A stretch of 63,959 nucleotides of DNA, filler included, from an uncultured bacterium (GTDB lineage: Bacteria; CAZSTA01), in the NCBI GenBank assembly GCA_964609495.1. It is 5 parts of 5 records of this genome, joined end to end, with 100 filler letters (N's around TTAATTAATTAA, not from the genome) between each part and the next. Parts side by side here need not be neighbours in the genome. Positions count along the whole stretch, not along the records: positions 26,849 to 39,884 come from CAZSTA010000097.1; 4 more parts are not named here. One strand, 5' to 3'. A program made the translations under genes and the position numbers. The notes below the pieces were generated by a model. That model was not told the DNA's origin. It saw nothing but the letters and a program-made list of their open reading frames with translations, and did not search any database. Within the stretch, counting starts at the first letter, position 1. Every line of letters starts with the position of its first letter. This document shows positions 9,330 to 62,153 of this stretch, one piece after another.

Positions 9330-9365
9330 AAATATAGCTCCTTCCAGGTATAAATCCAATACAAC

Positions 9366-9569
9366 AAAACCCCACCGTGCCGTTTTTGCCTCCGGGTAAT
9401 TTTGAACCCGTCTATGGACAAGTGGGTGCTCTACTAGTAACAGAAGAGGATTTCGTAGAGGCTCTTATGTCCCCTCGTGAATTACTCCCTGGTGTTCCAG
9501 AAATCGAGCTCCCTGTGTATAGGTGTTGGGTCAAAATTTTCTAAGGCTATACGGACACGGTCGGGTCTT
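9366..9569 (-). ncRNA. ssrS: 6S RNA
   Basis: ~200 nt with paired ends (ACCCGACCGTGTCCGT / ACGGCACGGTGGGGT), inner TTTTGACCC / GGGTTCAAAA pairing, GGGAGC and CACCCAC elements; own promoter. Confidence 0.8.
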
Positions 9570-9745: not shown

Positions 9746-10966
9746 CTATCTAAATCTTAGTAAAGCCCCTATTCCGATTCCCTCCCCCATATTCCTCAGC
9801 TCAGCTAGAGCATCTGGATCGTGAACGAACTCAACCTCGCCACCCTGGCTAAGTGTTAAATCGACCATCTCACCTATCAGATCAGGAATAGGTTCAACCT
9901 TCTCACTACAGATCGGGCAATCCTGCTCGTTCGCATCGCTTACAAGGTAATTACATTTTCGACATATTCCGCCGGATAGAGTTAAATCTCCCTCTATTAT
10001 CAAAACCTGTACTTGCCCCTCTTGCAAGGCCATAAGAGTCATCTCTAAACCAGCTATACCATATCCAGTGGGAGATAACTCCTCCTTCAAACGAGCTACT
10101 ACTTCCCTCTCCCCAGCCCTCTCTGTTTCATCCTCCACTTTGTGAGATTCAGCCAAAACCTGTTTTATAGAGGAGTTATCGACATCGAGATGAAGATGAC
10201 CTACTACGAGTTTCTGAAGATTGCTGGGCAAAGTCCTTTCGAACTCTGAAGCTACTTCAGGTAGCGAACCACCGATTATCAGATGATTGAACCTTTCCTT
10301 TTTGAAAAGCTCCTTTACTGCCTCCACCACCCTCTTCAGGTGTAGGTGAACATGATACTCCTGATGTCTGTCTATCCTGCGTTCCGCTCTGCCAAACCAT
10401 CTACCCCATCCCCCTTCTTTTGCCTTGCCTGGAACATCGTCAAATACCTCCGAATACTCCTCGATCTTTCCCATATAGACAAGGAATATCCGAGCATTCT
10501 CCTTATTAGCTAAAACTACACAATAACGATGATATTCATCTAACAAATGCATTAACTCACGAGTATATGGGGTGACATCGACCCTTATCCCATTCCTAAC
10601 CGAATGAGGTAAACGATAGATCTGCCAGAAGTTCTCACCTGAGGAGGAGAAAATAGCAAGCCCCTTAGTGCCTCCTCTCTTCTTCATACTCAAATTTATA
10701 AAGTTCTCTATCTTCTTCAGATCATCTTCGATCGATTTCTGAACCTTTCTATCTAATTCGCTCTCCTTTAGGAATCCCTCCCTGATCTCTTTAATTAGAT
10801 TCTTAAGGTTGGTTTCATATTCCTCGGGCTTGGGATATTTCCCTCCATCAACATCAAGATAAAGGCTAGTTACTAAATATCCCTCTCCGCTCTCAAAATC
10901 ATTAAGTCGCTTCACCTGTTCTCGAGTAATAAGCTTTTCTTCTCCTTCAGAAACTCTCATTGCCAT
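9746..10966 (-). CDS. Bacterial archaeo-eukaryotic release factor (baeRF/eRF1-like) protein
   Basis: SLYLDVD, KGLAIF, ARIFLVYMGKI, LQEGQVQVLII, CRKC/CPIC Zn ribbon, GIGALLRF C-terminus. Confidence 0.85.
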   Translation of the reverse strand: MAMRVSEGEEKLITREQVKRLNDFESGEGYLVTSLYLDVDGGKYPKPEEYETNLKNLIKEIREGFLKESELDRKVQKSIEDDLKKIENFINLSMKKRGGTKGLAIFSSSGENFWQIYRLPHSVRNGIRVDVTPYTRELMHLLDEYHRYCVVLANKENARIFLVYMGKIEEYSEVFDDVPGKAKEGGWGRWFGRAERRIDRHQEYHVHLHLKRVVEAVKELFKKERFNHLIIGGSLPEVASEFERTLPSNLQKLVVGHLHLDVDNSSIKQVLAESHKVEDETERAGEREVVARLKEELSPTGYGIAGLEMTLMALQEGQVQVLIIEGDLTLSGGICRKCNYLVSDANEQDCPICSEKVEPIPDLIGEMVDLTLSQGGEVEFVHDPDALAELRNMGEGIGIGALLRFR

Positions 10967-13447: not shown

Positions 13448-13547
13448 NNNNNNNNNNNNNNNNNNNNNNNNNNNNNNNNNNNNNNNNNNNNTTAATTAAT
13501 TAANNNNNNNNNNNNNNNNNNNNNNNNNNNNNNNNNNNNNNNNNNNN
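13448..13547. other. Artificial contig linker
   Basis: N-run/TTAATTAATTAA/N-run, 100 bp. Confidence 0.98.
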
Positions 13548-25425: not shown

Positions 25426-25451
25426 TTGTATAAAGAAAGGATGTGGGGATA

Positions 25452-26748
25452 ATGCGGACAAGCTTGGAGATCCCTGTAGTTCTACCCACCAATGGAAGTT
25501 GTGATCTGTGTATAAATAGGTTGAAGGATTCTCTTAACGCCTCATCGGGAATAGAGCATATCGAGGTGAAGCCCGATAGATCTGAGATGTTGATCGACTA
25601 CGATTCTAATCTTATATCTCTGGAAAAGATAGAGGAAGAGGCTAAGGAAACTGGTATCGCTCTAGCTAAGAAGTATAACCACGAGCATTTCGATCTGGCT
25701 GGGATCGATTGTCCAGACTGCGCCCTGACTCTGGAGAAGGCGATCTCTCGGCTTAGAGGTTCGATCTGGGTGTCAGTGAACTTCGCTTCCTCGAAGATGC
25801 AAGTCGAGTATGAAGCTGATAAGCTCGACCGGGAAACCATCATATCTCGGATAAGAGAGCTAGGCTATGAGGTGAGCCGAGTAACCAAGCCCTTGGATGA
25901 GAGAGGCAATATGACTCCTCGTTTAGAAGTGGAAGCTGAGGAGAAAGAGCAGTGGGATAGAAACAAGAAATTGATAACCACTATAATCTCAGGTATATTT
26001 GCTGGAGTTGGACTTATACTTCATATCTCAGGTTATCAAGCATCTACTACTATCCCTATCTTTCTGGTAGCTATAATCTCGGGAGGGATTTTCGTAGCTC
26101 AGAAGGGATTCTACGCTCTGCGAAGTTTAGCTTTAGATATGAACTTCCTTATGACAATAGCGGTGATCGGAGCGATGATAATCGGAGAATGGGCTGAGGG
26201 AGCGATGGTTATCTTCCTCTTCTCCCTAGCTAATCTTCTGGAATCCTCCAGTATGGATAGGGCTAGAAAAGCCATTCGCTCACTTATGAAGTTATCACCC
26301 AATATAGCTACCATCAGAGTTAATGGCCAGGAGACGAAGATCTCGATTGAGGAGGTAAAGATTGAAGATGTGGTTATAATCAAACCGGGAGAGAGGATAC
26401 CCCTAGATGGAGTGATCATCAAAGGTGAATCCTCAGTCAATCAAGCGCCGATAACTGGAGAATCGATACCCACCCAGAAGAATAAAGGCGATGAGGTCTA
26501 TGCTGGCACGATAAATGAAAGGGGCTACTTAGAGATAGAGGTTACCAAGTTGGTCAAGGACACCACCCTAGCTCGGATAATACATCTGGTGGAGGAAGCC
26601 CAAGCGCAGAAAGCTCCTTCCCAGAGCTTTGTTGATAAATTCGCTAAGTATTATACCCCTGTCGTTATTTTATCCGCTATCCTTATAGCCTCACTCCCGC
26701 CTCTAATATTCAAACAACCCTTCACCCCCTGGTTATATCGGGCGCTAG
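25452..26748 (+). CDS. cadA: Heavy-metal (Cd/Zn) P1B ATPase, truncated by contig end
   Basis: Two HMA domains (CDLC, CPDC), MNFLMTIA, PGERIPLDG, ITGES. Confidence 0.9.
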
Positions 26749-26848
26749 NNNNNNNNNNNNNNNNNNNNNNNNNNNNNNNNNNNNNNNNNNNNTTAATTAA
26801 TTAANNNNNNNNNNNNNNNNNNNNNNNNNNNNNNNNNNNNNNNNNNNN
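26749..26848. other. Artificial contig linker
   Basis: N-run/TTAATTAATTAA/N-run. Confidence 0.98.
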
Positions 26849-28400: not shown

Positions 28401-29249
28401 ATGAAGATAATTATGAAGAGAGAATATAAGGAATTTATTAAGCGATTAGCTAATCATATAATACTGATATTCTTCGCATTTCTGTTTGCTCTACCGCTAT
28501 TTTGGATGATTTCAACTTCGCTTAAGATAAACAGACAGATATTTATATTTCCACCAGTATGGATACCAAATCCTATAGAATGGGGACATTATGGAAGAGC
28601 AATAAATTTTATTCCATTTTTTACATATCTAAAGAACACCGTAATTATCTGTGGATTTTCCGTAGTGGGATCTGTCCTGTCTTGCTCATTAGCCGCGTAT
28701 GGTTTTTCAAGGGTTGACTGGCCAGAGCGAAATATCGTATTTATGCTCGTGCTAGCTACAATGATGATTCCTTTTGCTGTAACTATGATACCCCTTTTCA
28801 TCGTATTTAATAAACTTCATTGGGTGAATACCTTCTATCCCTTGATTATACCTACTTATACTGCGCCCGCATTTTTCGTATTTCTTCTGCGCCAATTTTT
28901 TATGACTATACCAGCAGAAATTTCAGATGCGGCGCGAATAGATGGATGTTCAGAGTTTAATATCTATAGACAAATAATACTTCCCTTAGCGAAGCCAGCC
29001 TTAGCTACGGTAGGTTTATTTCAATTTATATGGAGCTGGAATGACTTTCTCGGCCCATTGATATATCTAAGAGATCAAAGTAAATACACCTTAGCAATTG
29101 GTCTTCAGCAATTTAGAAGCAGTTATCTTACCGAATGGGGAATGCTTATGGCGGCAGCCACTATGATGGTGTTGCCTATTGTTATAATATTTTTCTTTAC
29201 CCAACGCACCTTTATTCAAGGTATTGCCCTAACAGGATTGAAGGGATAA
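28401..29249 (+). CDS. Carbohydrate ABC permease (MalG-like)
   Basis: ISDAARIDGCS, QRTFIQGIALTGLKG. Confidence 0.92.
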   Translation: MKIIMKREYKEFIKRLANHIILIFFAFLFALPLFWMISTSLKINRQIFIFPPVWIPNPIEWGHYGRAINFIPFFTYLKNTVIICGFSVVGSVLSCSLAAYGFSRVDWPERNIVFMLVLATMMIPFAVTMIPLFIVFNKLHWVNTFYPLIIPTYTAPAFFVFLLRQFFMTIPAEISDAARIDGCSEFNIYRQIILPLAKPALATVGLFQFIWSWNDFLGPLIYLRDQSKYTLAIGLQQFRSSYLTEWGMLMAAATMMVLPIVIIFFFTQRTFIQGIALTGLKG

Positions 29250-29278
29250 AAAATTTCAAAAATTTTTTATCAAACCCC

Positions 29279-29307
29279 TTGACAAAATCCCGATTTATTG
29301 GTATACT
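29279..29307 (+). promoter_or_regulatory. sigma70 promoter with extended -10
   Basis: TTGACA-N17-TATACT with TGn before the -10. Confidence 0.8.
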
Positions 29308-29311
29308 ATAG

Positions 29312-29678
29312 ATAGCCCCAAGTGGTTGGAAGGGGAAGTTGAAAACCGGAAATTGCTGGATATGCCTTTGAGAAGAGCAGATATCTTATTTGAAGGGGTA
29401 GGATAGAGGCTAACTGATTAGGTTCTGAAGGCAAGGGATGAAACGGCTGGAATATCCTCGGAAGAGGGAATAGATTGAGCTTTGCAAAGCCTTAGCGATG
29501 TCTAGGAACTCGGAAGAAGATAGGAAAGTGATTTCGGAAATTGCTGGATATACCTAAGAGGAAGGCAGGAGAGAGAATCGCTTAACAGCGATCTTTTGAA
29601 GGCTCTAGGAAGAGGATGGGAAGGCAAGGGAAGGTGAGTAAATGGAACTGGAAGGTTACTTGGGGCTATTTTATTTTT
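29312..29678 (+). ncRNA. Putative novel structured GGA-rich RNA
   Basis: Begins at the expected TSS; ATAGCCCCAAGT pairs with ACTTGGGGCTAT; U-tract follows; 22 GGA; no ORF of 60 aa or more. Confidence 0.6.
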
Positions 29679-29694
29679 AAATCTTGTTTATACT

Positions 29695-30408
29695 ATGAAG
29701 CGAGCAATATTATTTGATTTTGGCAATACGTTAGTCAGCTATTATCATACTGGTGAATTCCCTCCGATTTTGAAGGCGGCGATCCGAGAAGTAAGAGGGT
29801 ATCTGGAATATGAAGGCTTCCCGAAAGTTCCAGATGATCTGCTGGATGCTAGAGTTCAGCAGGAGAACTTTGAATCCAGCGATAGCCGAGTCCGACCATT
29901 AGAGGAGCGTCTTGCCCGCATTTTTGAAATTCTCATAAGTTGCCTCTCCCCCAAGCAAATTGATAATATGTGTAGGAGATTCCTCATCCCCATATTCAAA
30001 ATTGCGAGGTGTTATGAGGATTCCCTAGAAGCGCTCGATATTTTACGGGATCGAGGTTACAAAATAGGAGTTGTATCAAACACGCCTTGGGGAAGTCCTG
30101 CCGAGCCATGGCGGGAAGAGGTCAATAGACATGGAGTAGCTGAGAGGGTAGATTCCATCGTTTTCTGTAGGGATGTCGGATGGCGAAAACCCTCGGAGAT
30201 AATCTTCAAATTCTCATTAAATCAGCTTGGAGTTAGAGAAGAGAAGTGCATTTTTGTTGGCGATTCGATGAAGAATGATATTAATGGAGCCAGAGCTTGC
30301 GGGGTCGAAGCTATTTTGATCGATCGGCGGAATAGGGAGGATAATTCTGATGAAAGCCCTGTCAAGAATATGAGTGAGCTACTTCAAAGATTAGAGAAAT
30401 TAAGGTAA
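29695..30408 (+). CDS. HAD-superfamily hydrolase
   Basis: LFDFGNTL, VSNT, RKP, FVGDSMKNDI. Confidence 0.9.
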   Translation: MKRAILFDFGNTLVSYYHTGEFPPILKAAIREVRGYLEYEGFPKVPDDLLDARVQQENFESSDSRVRPLEERLARIFEILISCLSPKQIDNMCRRFLIPIFKIARCYEDSLEALDILRDRGYKIGVVSNTPWGSPAEPWREEVNRHGVAERVDSIVFCRDVGWRKPSEIIFKFSLNQLGVREEKCIFVGDSMKNDINGARACGVEAILIDRRNREDNSDESPVKNMSELLQRLEKLR

Positions 30409-39884: not shown

Positions 39885-39984
39885 NNNNNNNNNNNNNNNN
39901 NNNNNNNNNNNNNNNNNNNNNNNNNNNNTTAATTAATTAANNNNNNNNNNNNNNNNNNNNNNNNNNNNNNNNNNNNNNNNNNNN
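39885..39984. other. Artificial contig linker
   Basis: N-run/TTAATTAATTAA/N-run. Confidence 0.98.
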
Positions 39985-40969
39985 TCCCTCCATATCCCTG
40001 TCCGAAATACCAGGTATTTGATAACTCAGGTGCTCCGATGGTGGTATGTCCTCCTCGCGGGAAGCCCCCACTCCAGTTCCAATACATTGGTTGCTCCGCT
40101 ACTATCGGGTCACTCGCCACTATCTTGGCACAGAAGGCATCCTCCAAGCCGGGCAGGAGATGAGCCGCGATCGTCTTTCGAGCATTGGGATTGATGGTCC
40201 CAGAGTCAGTTACTGTCCCTCCTCCCTCCTTGTAGAAGTAAGCATCGTAGGTCACTGCATAGGCGTGGGGATTAACCATCATCACATAAGTTTGCCAGCC
40301 ACTCCCTCCATAGCCCTGTCCGAAATACCAGGTTTCTGATAACTCAGGTGCTCCGATGGTAGTATGTCCTCCTTGGGGGAAGCCCCCACTCCAGTTCCAA
40401 TACATCGGTTGCTCCGCTACTATCGGGTCACTCGCCACTATCTTGGCACAGAAGGCATCTCCTAAGCCAGGGAGGAGATGAGCCGCTATCGTCTTCCGAG
40501 CATAGGGATTGATGGTCCCAGAGTCAGTTACTGTTCCTCCTCCCTCCTTGTAGAAGTAAGCAGTGTAGTTCACTGGATAGCTATGGGGATTAACCATCAT
40601 CACATAAGTTTGCCAGCCACTCCCTCCATATCCCTGTCCGAAATACCAGGTATTTGATAACTCAGGTGCTCCGATAGTGGTATGTCCTCCTTGGGGGAAG
40701 CCTCCACTCCAGTTCCAATAGATCGGTTGCTCCGCTACTATCGGCTCATCTGTCTCTATCTTGGCACAGAAGGCATCTTGCAAGCCCGGGAGGAGATGAG
40801 CGGCGATCGTCTTGCGAGCATTGGCATTGATAGTTCCCGAGTCAGTTACGGTTCCTCCTCCCTCCTTATAGAAGGTAGCGTCGTAGGCCACTGAGGAAGC
40901 ACTAGAGTTAGACATCATCACATAAGTTTGCCAGCCACTCCCTCCATATCCCTGTCCAAAATACCAAGT
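39985..40969 (-). repeat. 318-bp coding tandem repeat (3 full units plus start of a 4th)
   Basis: AAATACCA anchors at 40005, 40323, 40641, 40959. Confidence 0.9.
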
Positions 40970-43198
40970 ATAAGGATTAACTATGAAGGAGCCTGACCCA
41001 GAGAAGGACTCTCCATAGGAATAGCTATAAACGAGCACGTTCACAGGGTGAGGCCCAGGGGAAGTAGCTCTGAGGGTCCAGGTAGCAATTTTATTCGCTC
41101 CATTGTTGATAGTCCCCAGATTCTGAGGATGGGAGCCAGAAATGAGGCTTACTCCGGCAGGAAGAGATAGAGAAACGTAGACACTATGGGCTGGCAAATC
41201 TCCAGTGTTATTCACCGTGACTTGAGCAATGAAGTCTTCGTCCACTGAGGCACTGTAGTTAGTTGTCGTCAAGCTGAAAGACGGCCCATCGACGCGGGAG
41301 AAGTTCTCCTCCGTTGCTAAAGCGAAATATTCATTGGTTATGCCATCAGGGAAATAACCAGCCGCGTAAACCTTGAGGACCACATAAGTGAAGCTCGAAG
41401 CTTTTACCTGCTCTACATTATCTACCGTGGAAGTCGAACTATCGAGAGATGATCCATCAGATCGTTTGTACATTCGGAGATTCAAATTGCTGAGCGAGGA
41501 GTAAGTAGTAGGATAATCGTCATCATTGTAGTCTACGTGCCTCTCCCAGACTAAGGTCGCGGTATCTCCTGAATAGACAAGCCCCCTATACAGCTCATAG
41601 TCTCCAGGAGTCAAAAACTCGGTAACTGAATCATAAAAAAAGTCATTTCTGTGGTAGTAAGCATGATTGAGATCGACATATCCCCAACCATACGCATTAT
41701 CCCAATCAGCACTTCCTTTATCCTCTGCGGTATTCAGCAAGACAGCTTTTTGCGCATAGGTATAGGAAATCCCATAATCACGGAGTATCACTACTGCCCC
41801 AGCTATATGCGGAGCAGCCATACTAGTTCCGCTTTTATTGATAAAATCATCTTCACCTTCGTCCCACTCGCTATTACAGGACTTTACTATGATTCCAGGG
41901 GCAGCTATATCTGGCTTCTTCCTCCCACTCACAGGTACTGGTCCTCTACTACTATTAGCAGCTATAGTATCATCGGCTCTAGCAGGATTGATATCGGTGG
42001 CATCACCATTATCTTCAACATTTCCTACGCTGTAGACGTTATAGGCTATGCTGGGGCTCGAGATATTCTCTGATGTCCCATCGTTCCCGGCTGAGATAGT
42101 CACTGGAATATTCATGTCCATCACCACTCCATCCCAGAAGCGACAATAATCATTATCGTCGCTGGAGGATGGACTTCCATAGCTTAAGTTTATCACATCG
42201 GCATGATCTTTCATAGCGCCAGCTATCGCCCAATCCGCAGCCGCCATCCCATCGGACTGATTCATAGAGCATGTTCCTCTGGGGTTCCCATCCGTATCAT
42301 AACCTGCTTTGCCGTTGATGAGCTTATCCACACTAGCTACCCCTCTATAAGTGCCATCTGTGCTCGTCACTATGCCTCCGATATGGGTTCCATGGCCATT
42401 CACATCATCTATAGTGTTATCCCACGCTGGATTGCCTGCCCCATCTAGGAACACTTGCTGATAAGATATCTTGCTGGATAGCGCTGGGTGACTATCATCG
42501 ATGCCGGTGTCTAGCACCGCTACATCATAAGGAGAGCCTTCATAACCACTGTCCCTCCAGCTATCGGCCTCTATAGCATAGAAGCTATGATCTAGGTGTC
42601 CTTCCATCACTTCATCTGGATATATATAGCCAACTTCAGGACGATTTGCCACCTCCTGAAGCTTATCGCTAGGAAGCACTCCAGTTATCACATTAACTAT
42701 CCTCAGCTTGTAGTTCACCTTTCCTCCCACCGACTCAATATAGCTTGCCAAAGTGTCCTGCTCACCCCTCATCAGAACTTCGGCACTATCCACTATCTCC
42801 ATCCTCATATCCTCTAACTCTCTCTCCAATTGAAGTTGTAAAGCTCTGATCTGCTCTCTCACCTCAGGAGTTATGGATTTCAAAGAACGATAAGCCAATT
42901 CTCTTTCCTCATCGGTGCTTTCTACCCCTCCCTTGGGTATCTCTGGAGCGGGATAAAGTGATCGTATCTGTTCCTCCAATTTCTCTATCCGAGGTCTGTA
43001 ATCGGCTTTCACCCTCTCCCCTATCTCAGGCACAGGCTGAGTCTTAAGGTAGATTATCACACTCACCTCGGGAGATGTTTGAGCCTCCTCCAATAGCTTG
43101 GGAGAGATCTTATCAGATATCGCATTTGCAGTCGCTCCCCAAGCTAAGGAGGACATAACTATGAGAAAGATTATAAGGTAGAATTTATACTTTCTCAA
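39985..43198 (-). CDS. Secreted S8 subtilase with Ig-like domain and C-terminal 106-aa repeats, truncated by contig end
   Basis: Signal peptide; VAVLDTG, HGTH, GTSMAAPHIAG triad; repeats TWYFGQGYGG...GGHTTIG. Confidence 0.92.
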
Positions 43199-43486: not shown

Positions 43487-46400
43487 TTATTCTTCAGGAG
43501 GAATAGTAAGATCCGGAACAGCTTTATATTCCGCATAGCCATTATAAACGACTTTAGCCACGGCCCAGAAGGATTTATTGGATATATCCCCTGCTCCCTT
43601 CCTCTCAAAGATATATTCCTTCTTCTCTCCACTTGATAGCTTCATCGCATAGCCTCTCGGTCCTATCTCTCCTAATGAGTATTCTCCTATCTCCTTCTTG
43701 CTCCACATCTCATGAGGCGTAGCTAAGAAAACCTCCCCTGTTATCTCATCTTCATTAGGATTGCTCACCTCTACTATTATCTTCTCCCCTTCATTCCTCA
43801 CTTCCCATTCCAGCTCGCTCTTCCTCCCTACCTCTATCACATCCTCATATATCTGGCCTTCATGCTTTATCCTCGCTTTTATCAAACCCTTCCTCTCCTT
43901 CTTCTCTGGCATCCAACCAGATACTCTAGTAGTGAAGGCTATAAGTATATCCTTCGTTATGCTCTCATAAGGTTCAAGGACATATTCCACCTTAGAGGGA
44001 ACTGCTTTCCAATCCTCAGGAGTTATTATCTCTACTTCCCCTACTATTCTTCTATCGGTGTAGTTATTAGCCACTCCTACTTTTATGGTGTTGACGGTTA
44101 CTCCTCCCTGTCTGATATGGACATCAGTAGCTAACTCTCCTTTGAGGGAGATAGCAACAGGGCTGTATCCGATAGGCCCAGCTCCTAAATTGTGCCTCCA
44201 ATGTTTGAAGTAAACGGGCTGAGATATCTCCTCCTCTCTCCCTAAAGTAGCAGAAGGCAACTTCTCAGCCAAGATATGAGGATCTAACTCGTAGGTTTCA
44301 ATACTGAAGGGAGTAGCGGTAATATTGATAGTGTCTCTGTCAACAGCTAGATAACCATCTCTCTCCTCAAGGAGGTTAGTAGTATGAGCTTGGGCTAAAG
44401 GGGTGAAGAATTGGATAGAAGAAGAGGTCTTCTCTCCTTTCGCCTCATAAAGCCTAATTATCATTCCCTCGGAAGAATGGACACATTTAGAGGAGAAGGA
44501 AGCGGTAGGATTACCTTTGGGCTTGAGAGCGGTTACGATTAAGTTATCAGCTCCTACCTTCAGGAAGGATAAGGATGTTGGTAGAATACCTTTATGAAGA
44601 GAGAGTTGTTTGGAGATAAGGGGGTTGTTGACCTCGAAGCCTACTTGATAGGTCTTAGCCTCTCTCCAGGAACTTTGATGAGGATATAGGGAATATAGGA
44701 ATTGATGGGTCTTCCACTCCGGGACGAAGAAGAAGGGCAATCTATCCTTTCCCCAAGGGGTGCCTCCCCAAGCGGCAGTATGCATTAGGAAGAGGACGAG
44801 AGTGTTGTTGAACTCAACGGAGTTAAGGACATTTCCCCTGTTTATCAGAGCTAGGCCGTAGTCATCGGTCTGAGTATCTATCCCCGTCGGGTTAGCGGAA
44901 GCGGGAAGCTCTATATCTCCAGTCTCCTCTAACCCCTTAATTAGCGTAGCTACTGCGGATTTGAGATAGCAGGTATCCTTAGCGGAGATAAGGAGGACCG
45001 GAATGGGCTGCCATCCCTCAGGAAGATCGGAATCGAGCAGGAGGAGATAAGCATATCCCTTCTCATCTATTTCCCTCTGATAAGCCTTCTTCTGCTCCTC
45101 AGTCAAGGTATCGATCATCTTCTTGGAGTAGGAGTTATCTTGAGCGACATCGAGGGAGATTCGCATCGCAGTGCCCCAGGGTAGATCTTCGTTGAGGTTT
45201 TCCTTGGGCATAGTAGAGTCTTCAAGGGTCAGATTCTTTCTTCTTTCCCTATCTAGGTCATCGAAGAAGGGGGTGGAAGGGATACCTTTCTTGATAAGAG
45301 CGGATTGCAGAAGATAAGCGGTATCAAGGACCTCTTGACAATGAGAGGTAACGAGTCCTAATGAACCCATCGCAAGAGATACTTCTTTCCTCCCTTCACA
45401 CCTGATTAGCGCATTATAGTTCAAATCCACCCATTGATAGGCTCTCCTCGCTCCACAATCGGAGTAGTTGCTCCATTGATGGGTCCTATAATCCAAGGCG
45501 GATTTACCCTTACGCTTAGTGGTTACCCCGAATCTCTCCTCATAGACGGGATTCAATCCTTGCAGGGTAGAGGGGAAGGTGACCACAAAGAGATCATGTT
45601 CTCCCTCGTAATTCTCCAGCCTGGTCGCAAAATCTATCCTCTTTATCCCCTTATAAAGAATTATCTCTTGATATTTTCCGCAATCCTTCATCTTCCCTCT
45701 GATGAGAAGTTTAGTCGCTATTTTCCCCTTCTCTATCTCCGCCTCCGCCTCATATTCCCTGCCGAATACCTTTCCTCCAGTGGTAAACACCTCCCAAGCT
45801 GGCTCATGACGGGCGGGATCCTCAGTAAGAGCGACTAACTCATTGCCATAGCCATTATCCTTATCTATCAATTCCTTCCTATTCTTCCGATCGTATAAGC
45901 GGACTATTCCCCCTCCCGCCTTCTCATCTACCTCTATGGTGTAATATTCGTTCTCTATCTTAACTCCCTTTCTCCTCTTCGCCTCTTCTATCTTCCCCTC
46001 TGCTGGTATCACATAATACACCTTATAGCCTAGGGATGGCACTCCCTCAGCTATCATCAGGAAGCCTGCCTTCTTTATCTTACCCTTCTCATCCTCCTCC
46101 ACGCATTCCACCTGGTATTCTATCTCCTTACCTTCCTCATCTATCACCTTGAAATTGTCTATACCCTCCTCAAACTCTACCTCTACCTTGACTACATCTT
46201 TTCTCTCCCAGTTCAGGGGATTATATACACTTATCGGTATCGCCTTATCGCTAGGGGTCTTATCCTCGGTATCTATCGCCTTCCCTAGATATCCTAGCGC
46301 GTTATCTAATACCTCTCCTCCTAATTCCAACGCCTCTCTATATCCCAGCATCAAGTCCAGATATGATCTATCACAACTTGGTCCGGTTATCGCATCGTGA

Positions 46401-47389
46401 TGCTGATTGAAGAGGAGATGCCTCCAAGCCTTATCCAAGGCTTTATCTGGATACTTCGCTCCTAAGAAGTTGGCTATGGTGGAGAATTTCTCGGCACTCA
46501 GGAGGATATTCTCCCCTCTGATGTTGCTTATCTTCAAGCCTATCCTCGATAATCCGGTCCCCTGGTGATGCCATTCATAATCTCTAGCTGTGACTGGAAG
46601 CTTGAGATCCTTCTCCTTTATTTCCTCTTCGACCGCTCGGAAGAATTTTCTATGGGCTGTTCCACTTACCACGATGCTGGGAGTCCCTTCTCTTAATCTC
46701 TTGGACTCTCCGGCCATCCAAGCAGTGGGGGGCTTGAAATCCACACAATCTAAGCGAATATCCACCGAAAGCCCGAGGGATTTCATCTCCTCATATCTCT
46801 CCTCCATCTCTGGGAGAAATTCCTCTTGGTTCCAAGCGTGTAAGCCATAAGATTCCCTTCTAAAAAGTAGCTTAGTGCCATCCAACGCTTGGTGGAAGAA
46901 GATAGGATTGGTCCCTCGGATATCTTTTGACCAGATGCAAGCTCTGAAGCGGGCTTTGGAGAGTATCTGAGCTAACTGAGCGCAGTGTCCAAAAACATCC
47001 CAGCACATATATACCTCAGGCTTATCCTTCGCGATTCCCTCGTGGAATAACCTTCCATAAAGGATATTTCTCACCAATCCTTCTGGTCCGATAACTGCCT
47101 CGGTCGGTTGACTGTGAGAGCCACCAGTTCCAACCCTTCCCTCTCTGACCAATTCTCGTAGGTAATCTCGATCCTCCAGCTCAGTATCGAGGTATGGCTT
47201 CATATAGGTTAGCTCGTGTAGATATACCCCATAATATGGATCTACCCGGCAGATTTGGAGATTCTGACTCATATCTCCCATCAGGACAACCGCATAATCA
47301 CGCTGATCTTCAAGCCATACCACATCTGAATGGAACCCGGGTGTTAAGTATATAATTGCCTCTCTAACATCCTTACGCCGCTCGGCCAT
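43487..47389 (-). CDS. Large GH38 (alpha-mannosidase-like) glycoside hydrolase
   Basis: FHSDVVW, DVFGH, NQHHDAITG, VYNPLNWER, IRLYEA. Confidence 0.85.
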   Translation of the reverse strand: MAERRKDVREAIIYLTPGFHSDVVWLEDQRDYAVVLMGDMSQNLQICRVDPYYGVYLHELTYMKPYLDTELEDRDYLRELVREGRVGTGGSHSQPTEAVIGPEGLVRNILYGRLFHEGIAKDKPEVYMCWDVFGHCAQLAQILSKARFRACIWSKDIRGTNPIFFHQALDGTKLLFRRESYGLHAWNQEEFLPEMEERYEEMKSLGLSVDIRLDCVDFKPPTAWMAGESKRLREGTPSIVVSGTAHRKFFRAVEEEIKEKDLKLPVTARDYEWHHQGTGLSRIGLKISNIRGENILLSAEKFSTIANFLGAKYPDKALDKAWRHLLFNQHHDAITGPSCDRSYLDLMLGYREALELGGEVLDNALGYLGKAIDTEDKTPSDKAIPISVYNPLNWERKDVVKVEVEFEEGIDNFKVIDEEGKEIEYQVECVEEDEKGKIKKAGFLMIAEGVPSLGYKVYYVIPAEGKIEEAKRRKGVKIENEYYTIEVDEKAGGGIVRLYDRKNRKELIDKDNGYGNELVALTEDPARHEPAWEVFTTGGKVFGREYEAEAEIEKGKIATKLLIRGKMKDCGKYQEIILYKGIKRIDFATRLENYEGEHDLFVVTFPSTLQGLNPVYEERFGVTTKRKGKSALDYRTHQWSNYSDCGARRAYQWVDLNYNALIRCEGRKEVSLAMGSLGLVTSHCQEVLDTAYLLQSALIKKGIPSTPFFDDLDRERRKNLTLEDSTMPKENLNEDLPWGTAMRISLDVAQDNSYSKKMIDTLTEEQKKAYQREIDEKGYAYLLLLDSDLPEGWQPIPVLLISAKDTCYLKSAVATLIKGLEETGDIELPASANPTGIDTQTDDYGLALINRGNVLNSVEFNNTLVLFLMHTAAWGGTPWGKDRLPFFFVPEWKTHQFLYSLYPHQSSWREAKTYQVGFEVNNPLISKQLSLHKGILPTSLSFLKVGADNLIVTALKPKGNPTASFSSKCVHSSEGMIIRLYEAKGEKTSSSIQFFTPLAQAHTTNLLEERDGYLAVDRDTINITATPFSIETYELDPHILAEKLPSATLGREEEISQPVYFKHWRHNLGAGPIGYSPVAISLKGELATDVHIRQGGVTVNTIKVGVANNYTDRRIVGEVEIITPEDWKAVPSKVEYVLEPYESITKDILIAFTTRVSGWMPEKKERKGLIKARIKHEGQIYEDVIEVGRKSELEWEVRNEGEKIIVEVSNPNEDEITGEVFLATPHEMWSKKEIGEYSLGEIGPRGYAMKLSSGEKKEYIFERKGAGDISNKSFWAVAKVVYNGYAEYKAVPDLTIPPEE

Positions 47390-48907: not shown

Positions 48908-51900
48908 TTAGATATTTTTAACGCATCGCATCCCTATATAAGGAATGCGATGGGAGGGATGACCACTAAAACGAGATCCACAGCGAGCATGAAGTTCATC
49001 GTGACTCCAAGATCCACCTCTTAGTATATAGGTCTCTGTTCTTCCCACATATAACCCATCTATCCATTCGTAAACGTTTCCAGCCATATCATAACATTGA
49101 TAGGGACTTACTCCCGCAGGATAATTATCCACAGGAGTGCTACGTTCTATCCCTGACTCCTTAGTGTTGCACTTGCTGGAATCGAATTTGTTACCCCAGG
49201 GATATTTCTGATAATATTCTCCTCTGGCCGCCTTTTCCCACTCCAACTCGTTAGGCAGTCGCTTCCCAGCCCATTTAGCATAGGCACTAGCCTCATAGAA
49301 ACTTACACCGACCACCGGATGATCGGGCTTGTTAAATCTCTCATCATCCCAATAGTTAGGTTTGGTTATACTCCTTCGGTTCTTCCAGGACCAACCCTCG
49401 TCCGTCCAATATTCCCTTTTCTCATATCCCTCCGCCGCTATGAACTTCTCATATTGAGCATTTGTTACCGGATAGATATCGATATAATAATCAGGGAGGA
49501 AAACTTTCTTCAGGGAATTCTTCTCTCTATAAACGAAATTGCCTGCGGGAATTAGCACCATTCCTCGAGGAACTTCGCTGACTCTCCTTATATCCTCTAA
49601 GGCTATCCGCATCCCCTCTATATATTGATAACGATCATCTGGCACGCTCTCTAAAGCTTTCCTAATTATAAAATCTACTTCCTCGCTTATCTCGTCCCCT
49701 CGCAATTCACTAGGCAGGCGGTAATTGCCAATGGGCAGTTTATCAATCAGCATTTTGTATAAAGTTACTCCTACCGAATAGATATCGCAGCGCCGATCCA
49801 CATCTTCCGCTCCCAATCTCTGTTCAGGAGACATATATTCGAAGGTTCCAGTTGAGAAACGCAGGGTGGAAAGGCGGGGAGCATCGACTAGCTGAGTCAA
49901 GCCAAAGTCGAGTATCTTTACCCTATCCTTTACCAGAAAGATATTCTCTGGTCTTATATCCCGGTGAACGACCCCTCGCTTATGGGCAAAGGCTAATCCT
50001 TCGCAGACTTGGATTGTAATATCAAGAGCCTTTTCTAAGGGAAAAACCCCTTTTTCCTTCAGCAACTGTTGGACAGTAGTTCCCTTGAGATAATCCATAA
50101 TTATATAATATCTATTCCTGAAGGACTCAAGACCATATACTCGACCGATATTCTTATGCACTAAAGAGATAGCCATTTCAATCTCTCGTCTGAATCGTTG
50201 CATCAGGAAATAATTACTAGTATAAGTTTTCTTTAGGACCTTCAGAGATACCTCTCTCCTCTCCTTCCGATCATACGCCCTATAGACTGTTCCCATCGCT
50301 CCTCGTCCTAATATCTCCTCGAGTTGATAGCGCTCGGGAACGATATTCAACTCTTCTTTAAGAGAAACAGCTCGCTGATAGCTGTCTAAGGCATCTTTAA
50401 GGAGCCCCTTCTCCATAAATACATATTGAAGATTATAGTAGGCCTCGGCTAGGTTAGGATCAAGGGATATAGCCTCTTGATAGTAATAATCAGCCTGTTC
50501 GTAATTTGATTGACTAAATTCGATATTGCCCATTTTTAAGAGAAATTCCAAATCTCGGTACTCTCTCCCTAAACGATCTAGCTCCGCTTTCATCTGCTGG
50601 ATCTGTTGCCACTGCTCTGTGTTTAAGATAAGCCTTTCTCCATCCTCGAGTAATAAGGGGACCTTTATCTGCTCGAAAACTGACTTGAATTTATCGATTA
50701 GTTTATCAAATTCCTTCCGAGCCTTCTGTTTCCGTTCGGCGGTCCTGAAGTAATCCTCCACCTCCTTCTGGATCATATCTCTTTCAAGACGACTAACACT
50801 TTCGTATAGCACCTCTCGAACCTTAGTGTGAGCAAAATCATAGCTATATCTATCCTTTCTTAACTTCTCCACGAGCAACCTACTTCTGATAAGTCCTTCC
50901 AATATATCAGTCAATTCGTCCTCGCTCTTTTCGTTTAATTTCAACAGGAGATCGAAATCAAATTCCCTTCCTATCAGAGCCGCGAGGGATAGGATATCCA
51001 AGTGGCTTTTATCTAACCTATCTAGCCTTCTCTTTATTATCCCGTGAATCTCGGTAGGGATCTGAGGTATCTTGCCCTTTCGTCTCTTCCAATCTCCCCT
51101 CTCTCGATATATTATCCCCTCCTCCACATAGGCTCTAAGCATCTCCTCGATGAAGAGAGGATTACCTTCTGTCTCAGAGTAGATCCATTCTCCGAAGCTT
51201 CTAGGTATATTCCTATCGCCGAGCATATATCCAACCATCTCGGTGACCTCGGAGACAGACAGGGGTTCAAGTTGAACCAAAGTCGCTATTTTCTCCTCAG
51301 CCAATTTTTTTATCAATTTATCTGGGATATGTCCTTCCTCGATCTCATCACTACGGTAAGAACCACAGATTAGAATATGTTCTTTATCTAAGTTACTAGC
51401 TAGATAATGGAGGAGGGAGGCGCTCATCTCATCGATCCACTGCAAGTTATCGATAAAGATAAGGAGAGGCTTATCCCTCGATACCCGCCCCAAGAGATGA
51501 GTTAAAGCTTCGAAGAATTGATATTTCTCGCTCTCAGGCTCTACCACAATGCTGGGGTCTATATCCCCTATTACTGTTCTACTTGCTAATTCTGGAACTA
51601 GTCTGATCAATTCGGCTTCTGCTCCTTCGATGACCAGAGAATCGAACTCTTGCGGTCTAGAAGAATATTCCCTCAAAATATCGATGAAGGGCTGATAAGC
51701 GACTCTATTTCTCTCATAGCAATCACCCTTTAGGAATCTAACTTGTCGTTTATAGCTATGGGTTTTTAACTCCTTCAGTAACTTACTCTTCCCCAAGCCA
51801 GTCTCTCCTCCGATTAGAACCAGACCCCCATTCCCAGCTATAGTTTTATCGAGAAGTGATCTTATCGTTGTCGACTCCTCTTCTCTGCCCACCAGGGGTG

Positions 51901-52789
51901 GTGAAAAGATCAGATCTGCCTTCCGGGGAGCTGAAGGGATCTCAAAGGGAGCGACTCTCCTTCCCTCCCTCTCCGCTAGAAGAGCTATATCTCGAAGCAG
52001 ATCTCCCGCTGATTGATACCTATCGATGGGATTCTTCTCCATCAACTTTAAGATCAACCTTTCCCATCCTTCTCCCAGCTCAGGATTATACTCGCGAGGG
52101 GGGACAGGCTCTTGGCTTATATGTTTTAGAATAATGGAGATAGGATTTTCCGCCTCGAAGGGCAATCGTCCCGTCATCGCCTCATATAAGATCACTCCCA
52201 GAGAGTATAAATCGGAACGGTAGTCGATAATATCTGCTTGCCCTTGCTCCGGGGACATATAGACCACAGTCCCCACCACCGATCCTGTCCGGGTCAACTT
52301 ATCCGATATATCCGCGATTCTAGCCAAGCCGAAATCCATAACCTTGGCCACTCTATCTTTATTCAACATTATATTCTCTGGCTTTAGATCCCGGTGGATA
52401 ATACCCTCGGAGTGGATATAATTCAGAGCTTTGCAGATCTGAATCAGGATATCAATAAGTTCAGGAATGGGAACTATATTCCCTTTAGATATCCTATAGT
52501 CTTCCAAATCTCTTCCATCGATATATTCCATAACGAAGAAGAGGATATCCTCTTGAGAGCCATAGTCATAAACAGATATAACATTGGGATGTTTGAGCCT
52601 GGTGAGAGCTCTAAATTCTCGATGAAAGCGAGCTTTATCTTCCTCTCCACTAGTTAATAAATGAGATAGGAGTTTCACCGCTACAAAGCGCTCCAATTGG
52701 AGATCATGAGATTTATATACTACTCCTGCCCCTCCCTCTCCTAGCTTCTCAACTAGTTCATATCGGCCTTTTAATAGCGTCCCAATCAT
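48908..52789 (-). CDS. Ser/Thr kinase - STAND (AAA_16-like) ATPase - TPR - second kinase - FGE-sulfatase fusion
   Basis: HRDLKPEN/DFG, GETGLGKS, IDNLQW, GNPLF, TPR, HRDIRPEN/DFG, RLPNELEWEKAARG, DMAGNVYEW, RGGSW; start after AAGGAG. Confidence 0.9.
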   Translation of the reverse strand: MIGTLLKGRYELVEKLGEGGAGVVYKSHDLQLERFVAVKLLSHLLTSGEEDKARFHREFRALTRLKHPNVISVYDYGSQEDILFFVMEYIDGRDLEDYRISKGNIVPIPELIDILIQICKALNYIHSEGIIHRDLKPENIMLNKDRVAKVMDFGLARIADISDKLTRTGSVVGTVVYMSPEQGQADIIDYRSDLYSLGVILYEAMTGRLPFEAENPISIILKHISQEPVPPREYNPELGEGWERLILKLMEKNPIDRYQSAGDLLRDIALLAEREGRRVAPFEIPSAPRKADLIFSPPLVGREEESTTIRSLLDKTIAGNGGLVLIGGETGLGKSKLLKELKTHSYKRQVRFLKGDCYERNRVAYQPFIDILREYSSRPQEFDSLVIEGAEAELIRLVPELASRTVIGDIDPSIVVEPESEKYQFFEALTHLLGRVSRDKPLLIFIDNLQWIDEMSASLLHYLASNLDKEHILICGSYRSDEIEEGHIPDKLIKKLAEEKIATLVQLEPLSVSEVTEMVGYMLGDRNIPRSFGEWIYSETEGNPLFIEEMLRAYVEEGIIYRERGDWKRRKGKIPQIPTEIHGIIKRRLDRLDKSHLDILSLAALIGREFDFDLLLKLNEKSEDELTDILEGLIRSRLLVEKLRKDRYSYDFAHTKVREVLYESVSRLERDMIQKEVEDYFRTAERKQKARKEFDKLIDKFKSVFEQIKVPLLLEDGERLILNTEQWQQIQQMKAELDRLGREYRDLEFLLKMGNIEFSQSNYEQADYYYQEAISLDPNLAEAYYNLQYVFMEKGLLKDALDSYQRAVSLKEELNIVPERYQLEEILGRGAMGTVYRAYDRKERREVSLKVLKKTYTSNYFLMQRFRREIEMAISLVHKNIGRVYGLESFRNRYYIIMDYLKGTTVQQLLKEKGVFPLEKALDITIQVCEGLAFAHKRGVVHRDIRPENIFLVKDRVKILDFGLTQLVDAPRLSTLRFSTGTFEYMSPEQRLGAEDVDRRCDIYSVGVTLYKMLIDKLPIGNYRLPSELRGDEISEEVDFIIRKALESVPDDRYQYIEGMRIALEDIRRVSEVPRGMVLIPAGNFVYREKNSLKKVFLPDYYIDIYPVTNAQYEKFIAAEGYEKREYWTDEGWSWKNRRSITKPNYWDDERFNKPDHPVVGVSFYEASAYAKWAGKRLPNELEWEKAARGEYYQKYPWGNKFDSSKCNTKESGIERSTPVDNYPAGVSPYQCYDMAGNVYEWIDGLYVGRTETYILRGGSWSHDELHARCGSRFSGHPSHRIPYIGMRCVKNI

Positions 52790-52898
52790 AATAAACTCTT
52801 CTCCTTGAGACATAAAACTCTTTAACAAAGAAAATTTCTCTACCATTTTGTATTATATCATAATTTAAAAATTTTAGCAACCATATTCACTCCGCCAG

Positions 52899-52972: not shown

Positions 52973-53072
52973 NNNNNNNNNNNNNNNNNNNNNNNNNNNN
53001 NNNNNNNNNNNNNNNNTTAATTAATTAANNNNNNNNNNNNNNNNNNNNNNNNNNNNNNNNNNNNNNNNNNNN
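52973..53072. other. Artificial contig linker
   Basis: N-run/TTAATTAATTAA/N-run. Confidence 0.98.
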
Positions 53073-55307: not shown

Positions 55308-56142
55308 GGCTCTCCTCAGATCGGATCAAGATCATGTCGCCGATCTTTAATTCTAACCCCTCTTCTATAGAATCGAGTTTAAATTCAGACACCTTATTCT
55401 TTTCATCTACGCTCACGACCTTCCCCGTTCCCACCGGCTTTCTCTCCCACTTATTTAAATCGACCACCATTCCGGGTTCGATATTCTTCGTAATGTTAGT
55501 AACTACAACCACCTCTCCCCCATCCTTCTTCACATCTAATACTCTCCCACTCTGAGGTATACCCCTCCCTTGAGTTGCGTTTCTATATTCCCTCTGTAGT
55601 GTGAAATTAGTGACTAATAACAAAGCTATAACCACCACAAAAATGCTACTTATAGTAGCCATACTAACTCGATAACCTCGGGGAGGAACCAAGAACTTAC
55701 CAACTGAGAAGAAAAAAGATGATAATCTGCCCCTCCTCGGTTGATTTGGTTGAGGAGGATATTCCCTACGAACTATACTAAGCAAAGAATCGGGCATCCT
55801 AATGGGCTTCTCCTCCAAATATTCATCGAGTTCATTTAAAAGATCGAGAGATGAACCACAACTAGGGCAGATATGTATATGCTCTTTCTCCTCCTGGGTA
55901 AGCTCGATCTTCCCGCTCTGGAAAGCGATCAGCCTATCTTCGGCTGGACAATTCCGTTGGAATTTGGTGAAGTATTTGAGGAGTAATCTATCAGCCTCGG
56001 ATAGCTCCTTCAGCTTGCGAGCACAGACTTCACATTCGGCAAGGTGTTCTTCCACCCTCCGTCTTTCCTCCTCATCTAACTCGCCATCTATATAGGGAAC
56101 TAACAGAGCGGATATCTCGGGTCGAGAGCAAGCATTATTCAT
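55297..56142 (-). CDS. Membrane anti-sigma factor with two zf-HC2 motifs and an extracytoplasmic beta domain
   Basis: HLAECEVC and HIHICPSC, one TM helix, directly after the ECF sigma gene. Confidence 0.85.
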   Translation of the reverse strand: MNNACSRPEISALLVPYIDGELDEEERRRVEEHLAECEVCARKLKELSEADRLLLKYFTKFQRNCPAEDRLIAFQSGKIELTQEEKEHIHICPSCGSSLDLLNELDEYLEEKPIRMPDSLLSIVRREYPPQPNQPRRGRLSSFFFSVGKFLVPPRGYRVSMATISSIFVVVIALLLVTNFTLQREYRNATQGRGIPQSGRVLDVKKDGGEVVVVTNITKNIEPGMVVDLNKWERKPVGTGKVVSVDEKNKVSEFKLDSIEEGLELKIGDMILIRSEESLIP

Positions 56143-61739: not shown

Positions 61740-61816
61740 TGGCGGGGTCGACGGGATTCGAACCCGCGATCTCTGGCTTGACAGGCCAGTGTCCTAAACC
61801 GCTGAACGACGACCCC
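61740..61816 (-). tRNA. tRNA-Asp(GTC)
   Basis: Cloverleaf; CTGGC-CTGTCAA-GCCAG; TTCGAA; CCA end. Confidence 0.95.
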
Positions 61817-61833
61817 ACCTTCAAATTCCTCTC

Positions 61834-61908
61834 TGGTGGGCGAAACAGGATTTGAACCTGTGACCCCTTGCGTGTGAAGCAAGTGCTCTCCCGCTGAGCT
61901 ATTCGCCC
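61834..61908 (-). tRNA. tRNA-Val(CAC)
   Basis: CTTGC-TTCACAC-GCAAG; CCA end. Confidence 0.95.
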
Positions 61909-61937
61909 TTGTCCATCAAAGTAGCTGAGTTCGATTT

Positions 61938-62013
61938 TGGCGCCCCCAGGGGAATTCGAATCCCCGTTGCCGCCTTGAAAGGGCGATGTCCTAGGCCTCT
62001 AGACGATGGGGGC
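61938..62013 (-). tRNA. tRNA-Glu(TTC)
   Basis: TCGCC-CTTTCAA-GGCGG; CCA end. Confidence 0.95.
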
Positions 62014-62077
62014 CTATATCAAATATCAGTAAGCGGGCCACGGGCATCAACCGACAAATCGCTCAGCTAAATAAAGT

Positions 62078-62153
62078 TGGTGAGCCGTGCAGGAATCGAA
62101 CCTGCGACCCTCTGCTTAAAAGGCAGATGCTCTACCAGCTGAGCTAACGGCCC
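62078..62153 (-). tRNA. tRNA-Lys(TTT)
   Basis: TCTGC-CTTTTAA-GCAGA; CCA end. Confidence 0.95.

Follow-up and report, generated by a model that had tools for sequence, protein, structure and literature searches.

The DNA analysed here, a stretch of 63,959 nucleotides (nt), filler included, that is referred to below as the window, comes from an uncultured bacterium (GTDB lineage Bacteria; CAZSTA01; GenBank assembly GCA_964609495.1) and joins 5 parts of this genome end to end. In the part that derives from record CAZSTA010000097.1, between a permease gene and a gene for a HAD-family hydrolase, an original prediction made by inspection of the sequence placed an unannotated RNA gene of ~360 nt and interpreted it as a CsrB-like sponge or a new large non-coding RNA (ncRNA). 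The computational analysis described below indicates that the locus probably encodes a stand-alone ncRNA outside the known families, for which a long rod-shaped fold with numerous purine internal loops is predicted. The features that delimit the locus are the following.

29245-29271 (no strand assigned): A/T-only palindrome (GATAAAAAATTT caa AAATTTTTTATC) found by repeat search, with two perfect 12-nt arms and a 3-nt centre
29279-29307 (+): sigma-70-type promoter with 11/12 matches, both hexamers of which are kept in L084, a diverged homologous locus on a metagenome contig
29313-29669 (+): RNA body of ~357 nt, 66% purine and without a long open reading frame (ORF), apparently composed of a ~185-nt unit in two tandem, diverged copies
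29669-29678 (+): U tract TTTTATTTTT, directly 3' of the terminal stem P1 and kept in L084

A spacer of 17 nt separates the -35 hexamer TTGACA (29279-29284) from the TG-extended -10 hexamer TATACT (29302-29307) in the promoter, which is the top promoter-like site in the 1.4 kb that were scanned. Because of the position of this promoter, transcription would be expected to start at ~29312-29314, in agreement with the strong promoter and the start at ~29313 that had been proposed originally. The promoter resembles those of the tRNA and 6S RNA genes of the same window. The A/T-only palindrome is located between the stop codon of the permease gene and the -35 hexamer and may represent an UP-element-like tract or an operator; its counterpart in L084 is an A/T-rich tract that is palindromic only in part, and the alignment of the two loci reaches back to 29245. 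The -35 context appears to reflect a strong promoter of a general form rather than to mark an RNA family: a word of the RNA promoter, AAACCCCTTGACA, is also present before a tRNA gene and at further promoter-like sites of unrelated Bacillota genomes (loci L100, ~1445-1545, L104 and L107).

The ends of the RNA are joined by a perfect 12-nt inverted repeat (29312-29323 and 29658-29669) that is followed by the U tract, as originally described. The purine-rich composition of the body (A115 C44 G119 T79 in 29313-29669) likewise stands, and stops interrupt each of the six frames. A decayed gene, a possibility raised along with the original prediction, was searched for and rejected: translation of the six frames with X at stops produced no Pfam family at E<=1, and the antisense stop-free frame of 59 amino acids (aa), the one frame taken to the predicted-protein word search, shares no words with 5.8 billion predicted proteins (32-104 aa). 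A scan of the whole window with Rfam 15 at the gathering score identified no family at the RNA locus, and at E<=10 the interval 29200-29750 produced four matches (E 3.4-8.9), each far under the gathering score. There is no match to a riboswitch or leader family in Rfam either at this locus or in L084, which matches no family at all, with the Csr/Rsm models absent at E<=1. This agrees with the original statement that tmRNA, RNase P and SRP signatures are missing, and the outcome of the Rfam scan supports novelty.

The word that distinguishes the RNA is GGAA, with 16 occurrences compared to 6.3±2.0 in dinucleotide shuffles, none of 1000 of which contain as many. The longer words GGAAG (9 vs 2.3±1.4; 0/1000 shuffles with as many) and GAAGG (8 vs 2.3; 2/1000) are enriched as well. 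Over the whole window and both strands, GGAA density peaks at the RNA locus, with 16 per 357 nt against a mean of 2.1 (sd 1.7) and 10 at the next locus. Among 107 fetched loci, no other GGAA-dense non-coding stretch was found except L081, which is the same locus as that in the window.

The minimum-energy fold of the RNA is a single long rod of -106.7 kcal/mol (z = -4.17), and none of 100 shuffles is equally stable. In this prediction, helices of 2-6 pairs come after a terminal stem of 15 pairs and alternate with symmetric all-purine internal loops; the elements of the predicted fold are listed below.

29313-29327 (+): 5' arm of P1, predicted to pair with 29654-29668 through 15 pairs, 4 of them G-U
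29328-29337 (+): two GGAA loop strands (29328-29331 and 29334-29337) that face 29650-29653 and 29644-29647, respectively, in the predicted fold
29341-29344 (+): GAAA loop strand, predicted to lie opposite GAGUA (29636-29640) and identical in L084
29449-29470 (+): three GGAA loop strands (29449, 29460 and 29467), predicted to lie opposite 29523, 29512 and 29505
29479-29490 (+): palindrome GCTTTGCAAAGC of 12 nt, predicted to lie at the tip of the rod and missing from L084
29505-29526 (+): three GGAA loop strands (29505, 29512 and 29523) on the descending arm of the predicted fold
29654-29668 (+): 3' arm of P1, predicted to pair with 29313-29327

Five of the predicted loops place GGAA opposite GGAA (29328/29650, 29334/29644, 29449/29523, 29460/29512 and 29467/29505), and each of these is two-fold symmetric because both strands read alike in the 5'-to-3' direction. 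The remaining predicted purine loops are GGAAA/GGGAA, GAGA/AGGA, GGGA/GAAA, GA/GA and AA/AA. Loops of the GA/GA and GGAA/GGAA type have the kind of sequence that forms tandem sheared G-A pairs, and the GAAA/GAGUA loop, with its AGUA/GAA signature, presumably resembles the bulged-G (sarcin-ricin or loop E) module. Such recurrent three-dimensional modules are building blocks rather than RNA families, and the likeness suggested here derives from the sequence and the predicted fold. The apex palindrome GCTTTGCAAAGC could form a hairpin or mediate pairing between two molecules.

The arrangement of the loops was compared to that in 200 shuffles in which each of the 16 GGAA was preserved as a block. 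The predicted fold contains five GGAA/GGAA loops compared to none in these shuffles, 10 symmetric all-purine internal loops compared to 1.8±1.3 (maximum 6), and 18 of the 22 GGA unpaired compared to 9.3±2.2; for 12 of the 16 GGAA, the unpaired probability is at least 0.9 at all four bases. Because the GGAA-keeping shuffles yield no GGAA/GGAA loop, the placement of GGAA opposite GGAA appears to be, within the energy model, a real property of the sequence.

The rod shape, the paired ends (both predicted here) and a promoter of the stable-RNA type are also features of 6S RNA (RF00013), and Ms1-type RNAs, which bind RNA polymerase, are a further likeness. The possibility that the window RNA is a polymerase-binding RNA of this kind nevertheless appears extremely unlikely: the window already contains a bona fide 6S RNA (56 bits) at 9365-9569 (-), in line with the original remark that 6S lies elsewhere; the 6S model does not match the RNA locus at E<=10; and the RNA is about twice the length of 6S RNA and lacks, in the predicted fold, the large central bubble that resembles an open promoter. 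The 6S RNA gene has a TG-extended promoter and is situated directly downstream of the gene (9746-10966, -) that encodes a release-factor-like protein of baeRF family 10.

A 21-mer from the RNA, scanned exactly against metagenome contigs, yielded four loci. L081 is the window sequence itself, identical over 2147 nt; L082 and L083 are chance matches within coding DNA and were discarded. L084 is a true diverged homologue with an RNA of ~270 nt, 87.6% identical to the window over 129 nt of the promoter and 5' part and 85.1% identical over 148 nt of the 3' part. L084 retains the A/T-rich tract upstream of the promoter, both hexamers, ~60 nt at the start and ~140 nt at the end of the RNA, and the U tract; ~100 nt of the middle are missing, and the apical part is divergent. 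The predicted L084 fold (z = -5.27) has the shape of a basal rod bearing two hairpins, and 9 of its 14 internal loops are symmetric and all-purine compared to 1.5±1.2 in shuffles (0/200 reach 9), with the nine including a hairpin that cannot be aligned to the window RNA. The number of short motifs differs between the two RNAs: L084 contains 7 GGAA (16 in the window RNA), compared to 3.8±1.7 in shuffles, 68/1000 of which have as many, and 11 GGA, compared to 11.0±2.2 (582/1000). Thus, it is the purine-loop rod that appears to be conserved and not the number of GGA, given that L084 retains the purine loops in the prediction with GGA at the chance level.

The window RNA contains internal repeats. 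The 17-nt module that had been noticed originally at 29347 and 29535 is confirmed as CGGAAATTGCTGGATAT and widens to a repeat of 34 nt with 82% identity and a spacing of 188; a second, more diverged repeat lies further downstream in each half.

29347-29380 (+): D1 copy 1, found by repeat search, which includes the 17-mer
29407-29438 (+): D2 copy 1, found by repeat search, with the 3' end GAAGGCAAGGGA
29535-29568 (+): D1 copy 2, 82% identical to copy 1 and 188 nt downstream of it
29600-29631 (+): D2 copy 2, 72% identical to copy 1 and 193 nt downstream of it

The two halves of the RNA are homologous, with an alignment score of 98 compared to 57.9±6.4 in 200 shuffles (maximum 75), and the RNA thus reads as an internal tandem duplication of a ~185-nt unit.

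This duplication, the 12-nt terminal inverted repeats and the difference in genomic neighbours between the window and L084 would all be compatible with a non-functional or selfish repeat, such as an element similar to miniature inverted-repeat transposable elements or a decayed duplication, the fold statistics then being a by-product. We consider this very unlikely. The RNA is present in a single copy in the 64-kb window, with no paralogue elsewhere in it, and the metagenome 21-mer scan recovered two true loci among the four matches, one of them identical to the window, with one context per organism. Furthermore, the inverted repeats are not the borders of the conserved unit because similarity between L084 and the window extends beyond both, for ~68 nt upstream, through the promoter, and for ~15 nt downstream, through the U tract, ending shortly past it. 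Loops in which purines face purines are also not the product of an inverted DNA repeat.

Two features at the 3' side of the RNA bear on whether it is a transcription unit of its own or the leader of the gene that follows.

29629-29680 (+): Shine-Dalgarno-like GGAAGGTGAG (29629-29638) and a 12-codon mini-ORF, MELEGYLGLFYF followed by a stop (29642-29680), within the 3' arm and the U tract
29695-30408 (+): HAD-family hydrolase gene, with its start 14 nt past the mini-ORF stop

A cis-acting leader of the HAD hydrolase gene, with or without the 12-codon upstream ORF, would fit with the good Shine-Dalgarno of the mini-ORF, with the failure to find a Shine-Dalgarno or promoter belonging to the HAD gene itself, and with the lack of a canonical terminator in a simple scan. 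Given the 14-nt gap and the HAD gene without its own Shine-Dalgarno, translational coupling between the mini-ORF and the HAD gene is conceivable in this genome. The mini-ORF persists in L084 as MELKGYLGLFYF and a stop, with one E-to-K change, and together with its Shine-Dalgarno may be a mere look-alike of a translation start. The context of L084 argues against a leader: there, the RNA has no link to the HAD gene, another gene ends upstream, and downstream come a separate hairpin and a gene in convergent orientation, with none on the same strand. The flanking genes of L084 and the window show no similarity (tblastx), conservation stops shortly past the U tract in both records, and no riboswitch or leader family matches the RNA. 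Because the RNA occurs in two unrelated neighbourhoods, we interpret it as an independent transcription unit and not as a HAD leader, to which we assign a low probability.

The reading as a functional analogue of CsrB/RsmZ, in which unpaired GGA motifs would sequester a dimer of the CsrA family through symmetric internal loops, was assessed by running E. coli CsrB through the same scripts as a positive control. CsrA is a homodimer that binds GGA (PMC7652899, PMC13443453), and the window RNA is close to E. coli CsrB in size and in the number of these motifs (~357 nt and 22 GGA vs 369 nt and 22 GGA), the latter exactly as counted in the original prediction. The two RNAs are also similar in the share of GGA that is unpaired in the predicted fold (18/22 vs 16/22). 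A strong promoter of its own, a closing stem and a U tract also speak for this reading, and the modular build with a number of motifs that varies between relatives, here between the window RNA and L084, is another point of similarity to the CsrB/CsrC/RsmX-Y-Z group.

The tests in which CsrB and the window RNA part ways concern the abundance and the presentation of GGA. The 22 GGA of the window RNA compare to 17.6±2.6 in dinucleotide shuffles, 63/1000 of which reach this number (17.5±2.5 and 16/300 in a second run), and coding sense strands elsewhere in the window contain up to 20-24 GGA per 357 nt, whereas the CsrB control stands out with 22 vs 15.0±2.6 (2/300). The GGA count is therefore not above the dinucleotide expectation; the comparison with shuffles proposed originally turned out negative, in line with the original caveat that purine skew inflates the count. 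Similarly, 7 of the 22 GGA can be accommodated in a loop of 4-8 nt that is closed by at least 3 bp, compared to 7.9±2.5 in shuffles (354/500 reach 7) and, in a second run, 8.2±2.5 (225/300 with as many), whereas CsrB has 14 such motifs compared to 6.6±2.4 (0/300). Both hairpins that had been cited as presenting GGA are among these seven, but neither is formed in the minimum-energy fold and the total is at the chance level; in that fold, hairpin loops hold 0 of the 22 GGA of the window RNA and 9 of those of CsrB. High-affinity CsrA ligands from SELEX carry GGA in a hairpin loop in 51 of 55 cases (PMC7652899).

The word enriched in the window RNA is GGAA(G) within symmetric internal loops and not the A(N)GGA context: AGGA occurs 7 times compared to 6.3±2.3 in dinucleotide shuffles. 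No Csr/Rsm model of Rfam matches 29200-29750 even at E<=10, and the host is, as far as can be told, not a gammaproteobacterium. A loose CsrA motif matched nothing in the six frames of the 64-kb window, a small span, so that this says little. In Bacillota-like lineages, CsrA is not known to have antagonists other than proteins such as FliW. Among the papers listed by literature searches, none describes a CsrA-sponge RNA in Firmicutes or a rod RNA with GGAA loops. Membership of the CsrB family is not supported, and the label should be dropped because the tests of composition, presentation and model match failed and L084 has half the GGA; a functional analogue of CsrB is unlikely. Of the original alternatives, the new ncRNA is supported (no Rfam or Pfam match, and a homologue in L084), whereas the CsrB-like one is not supported by these tests. 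The broader idea of a multivalent sponge fared better in part, with most GGA predicted to be unpaired and a varying number of motifs on one side, and without the supposed GGA enrichment and hairpin presentation on the other.

The exposed GGAAG and GAAGG could also mimic Shine-Dalgarno sequences, so that the RNA would act as an RNA-RNA sponge that titrates the anti-Shine-Dalgarno tail of 16S rRNA or a C/U-rich regulatory RNA. Shine-Dalgarno sequences do precede genes of the window, and those of the seryl-tRNA synthetase gene and of two genes with starts at 56142 and 63864 are of the GGAAGGGG type; elsewhere, the conserved 3' block GGGAAGGTGAGTAAATGGAACTG of the RNA, which precedes the mini-ORF, had no matches but true ribosome-binding sites with start codons (phage contigs and one genome, G313); and for several 12-mers of the RNA, pairing to a generic 16S tail reaches -9 to -11.8 kcal/mol. 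However, the 16S tail used is a generic motif and not that of the host, and sites complementary to the anti-Shine-Dalgarno are not more numerous than in dinucleotide shuffles (17 vs 19.1±2.5, 9 vs 10.6±1.9 and 3 vs 4.5±2.0), with 85/100 shuffles reaching the observed value in each of the three comparisons. The symmetry of GGAA facing GGAA would also play no role in such a sponge, which we regard as quite unlikely.

We return to a stand-alone RNA with a purine-loop rod, against which several observations have to be weighed. A simple scan found no compact G+C-rich terminator hairpin before the U tract; the sole stem that precedes the tract is the long-range 5'/3' stem P1, and no terminator-type hairpin appears when the last 83 nt are folded locally. 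The basal helices between the loops are only 2-3 bp long in the prediction, which makes the rod reliant on purine-purine pairs, and these receive no score in the energy model. Other pairings can also be drawn, with two possible partners each for modules A and B, and the apical topology is predicted differently for the window RNA and L084. In the consensus of these two sequences (an alignment of 375 columns), derived from the very sequences that are being compared, both sides are changed in 2 of the 50 pairs, including a U-A to A-U change in the basal rod, and one side in 6; because 150/500 column shuffles do as well with two sequences, there is no statistical support from covariation. Neither the window locus nor L084 has a candidate gene for an RNA-binding protein adjoining the RNA.

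The distribution found so far is another such point, being very narrow among ~1,170 sampled genomes together with the permease loci and the plasmid and phage sets. Searches with nhmmer detected no homologue of the RNA at 80 loci that encode a counterpart of the neighbouring ABC permease (best identity 58%). Two scans of viral contigs produced 3 and 0 matches, the 3 being phage ribosome-binding sites, and the plasmid collection produced no match and the phage collection one spurious A/T match of 37 nt. BLAST of the RNA detected no homologue in 401 sampled genomes from the phylum of genome G001, 27 of which have short matches (E<=0.01) that are promoter look-alikes or ribosome-binding sites, and none in 401 genomes from the phylum of G005 or in 360 from the class of G406 (1 genome not scored). 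Sampling by the phylum of G406 and by that of G815 returned the 401 genomes of the first sample unchanged and added no homologue.

The host itself has no close relative among the genomes compared by PurH (20) and by an ABC-F protein (5). PurH is 47-56% identical to that of the 18 of these 20 genomes that have a full-length match, with one further genome lacking a match and one matching only through a 34% fragment, and the ABC-F protein is 39-44% identical in the 5 genomes. Sequence-derived features of the seryl-tRNA synthetase are nearest to clusters that are mostly from Bacillota. The window encodes several large proteins, namely an S8 subtilase (1089 aa; 39929-43198, -), a GH38 alpha-mannosidase-like protein (1300 aa; 43487-47389, -), a 1312-aa protein with Ser/Thr kinase, AAA_16, TPR and FGE-sulfatase domains (48908-52846, -) and a caspase-PEGA-PKD protein (814 aa; 56894-59338, -). 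The subtilase, the mannosidase-like protein and the caspase-PEGA-PKD protein, all with multiple domains, together with marker identities that do not exceed 56% in the genomes tried, indicate that the lineage is poorly sampled. The mRNA of the 1312-aa protein may be leaderless because its ATG lies 5 nt past a TATAAT box and has no Shine-Dalgarno. Four tRNA genes are clustered at 61743-62153 (-) under a consensus TTGACA-17-TATAAT promoter, upstream of the neighbour region of purH. Paired runs of 44 N are found at 13448-13547, 26749-26848, 39885-39984 and 52973-53072, at a spacing of roughly 13 kb, and one such pair cuts the ORF of a P-type ATPase (25443-26804; 453 aa), which looks truncated.

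Taken as a whole, the evidence leads us to favour, tentatively and at somewhat less than even odds, a stand-alone stable RNA gene whose product is a purine-loop rod that serves as a multivalent platform for a protein. The parts of this reading differ in strength: that this is a real, independent RNA gene is likely; that the RNA adopts a rod with purine loops, as modelled, is fairly probable; and that it acts as a decoy or scaffold for a protein is a more doubtful proposition. Under this scenario, a stable ncRNA of ~357 nt would be transcribed from ~29313 off the near-consensus promoter, its first and last 15 nt would pair and close the molecule, and the transcript would end at the U tract. The loops would then form purine-purine pairs, and some ten two-fold-symmetric purine loops could bind and titrate an RNA-binding protein, most naturally a homodimer, given that loop strands of the same sequence would suit a symmetric dimer. 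The number of sites could be altered through internal duplication of the ~185-nt unit. A partial parallel is provided by the Hfq sponges of the CrcZ/CrcY type, ~400-nt RNAs in which repeated short purine-rich motifs titrate an RNA-binding protein; their motifs are A-rich and single-stranded, whereas that of the window RNA is GGAA in paired-up internal loops, and no sequence relation is to be expected. A still more specific proposal, which we consider rather unlikely, is an undescribed class of regulatory RNA, a GGAA/GGAA-loop rod with one homodimer per loop that would act as a sponge of tunable valency and as the counterpart of CsrB in a Bacillota-like lineage.

At present, the RNA is best described as a well-delimited candidate, represented by two related sequences, and a proper name for it would be a purine-looped rod RNA and suspected protein platform. 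The regular array of GGAA facing GGAA is of structural interest as a natural run of what would be tandem purine-purine pairs. If the RNA is expressed and bound by a protein, the few protein-sponge RNAs of bacteria would gain a new architecture, with internal purine loops along a rod as opposed to motifs in hairpin loops, and a sponge RNA would be placed in an uncultured lineage that has no close sequenced relative.

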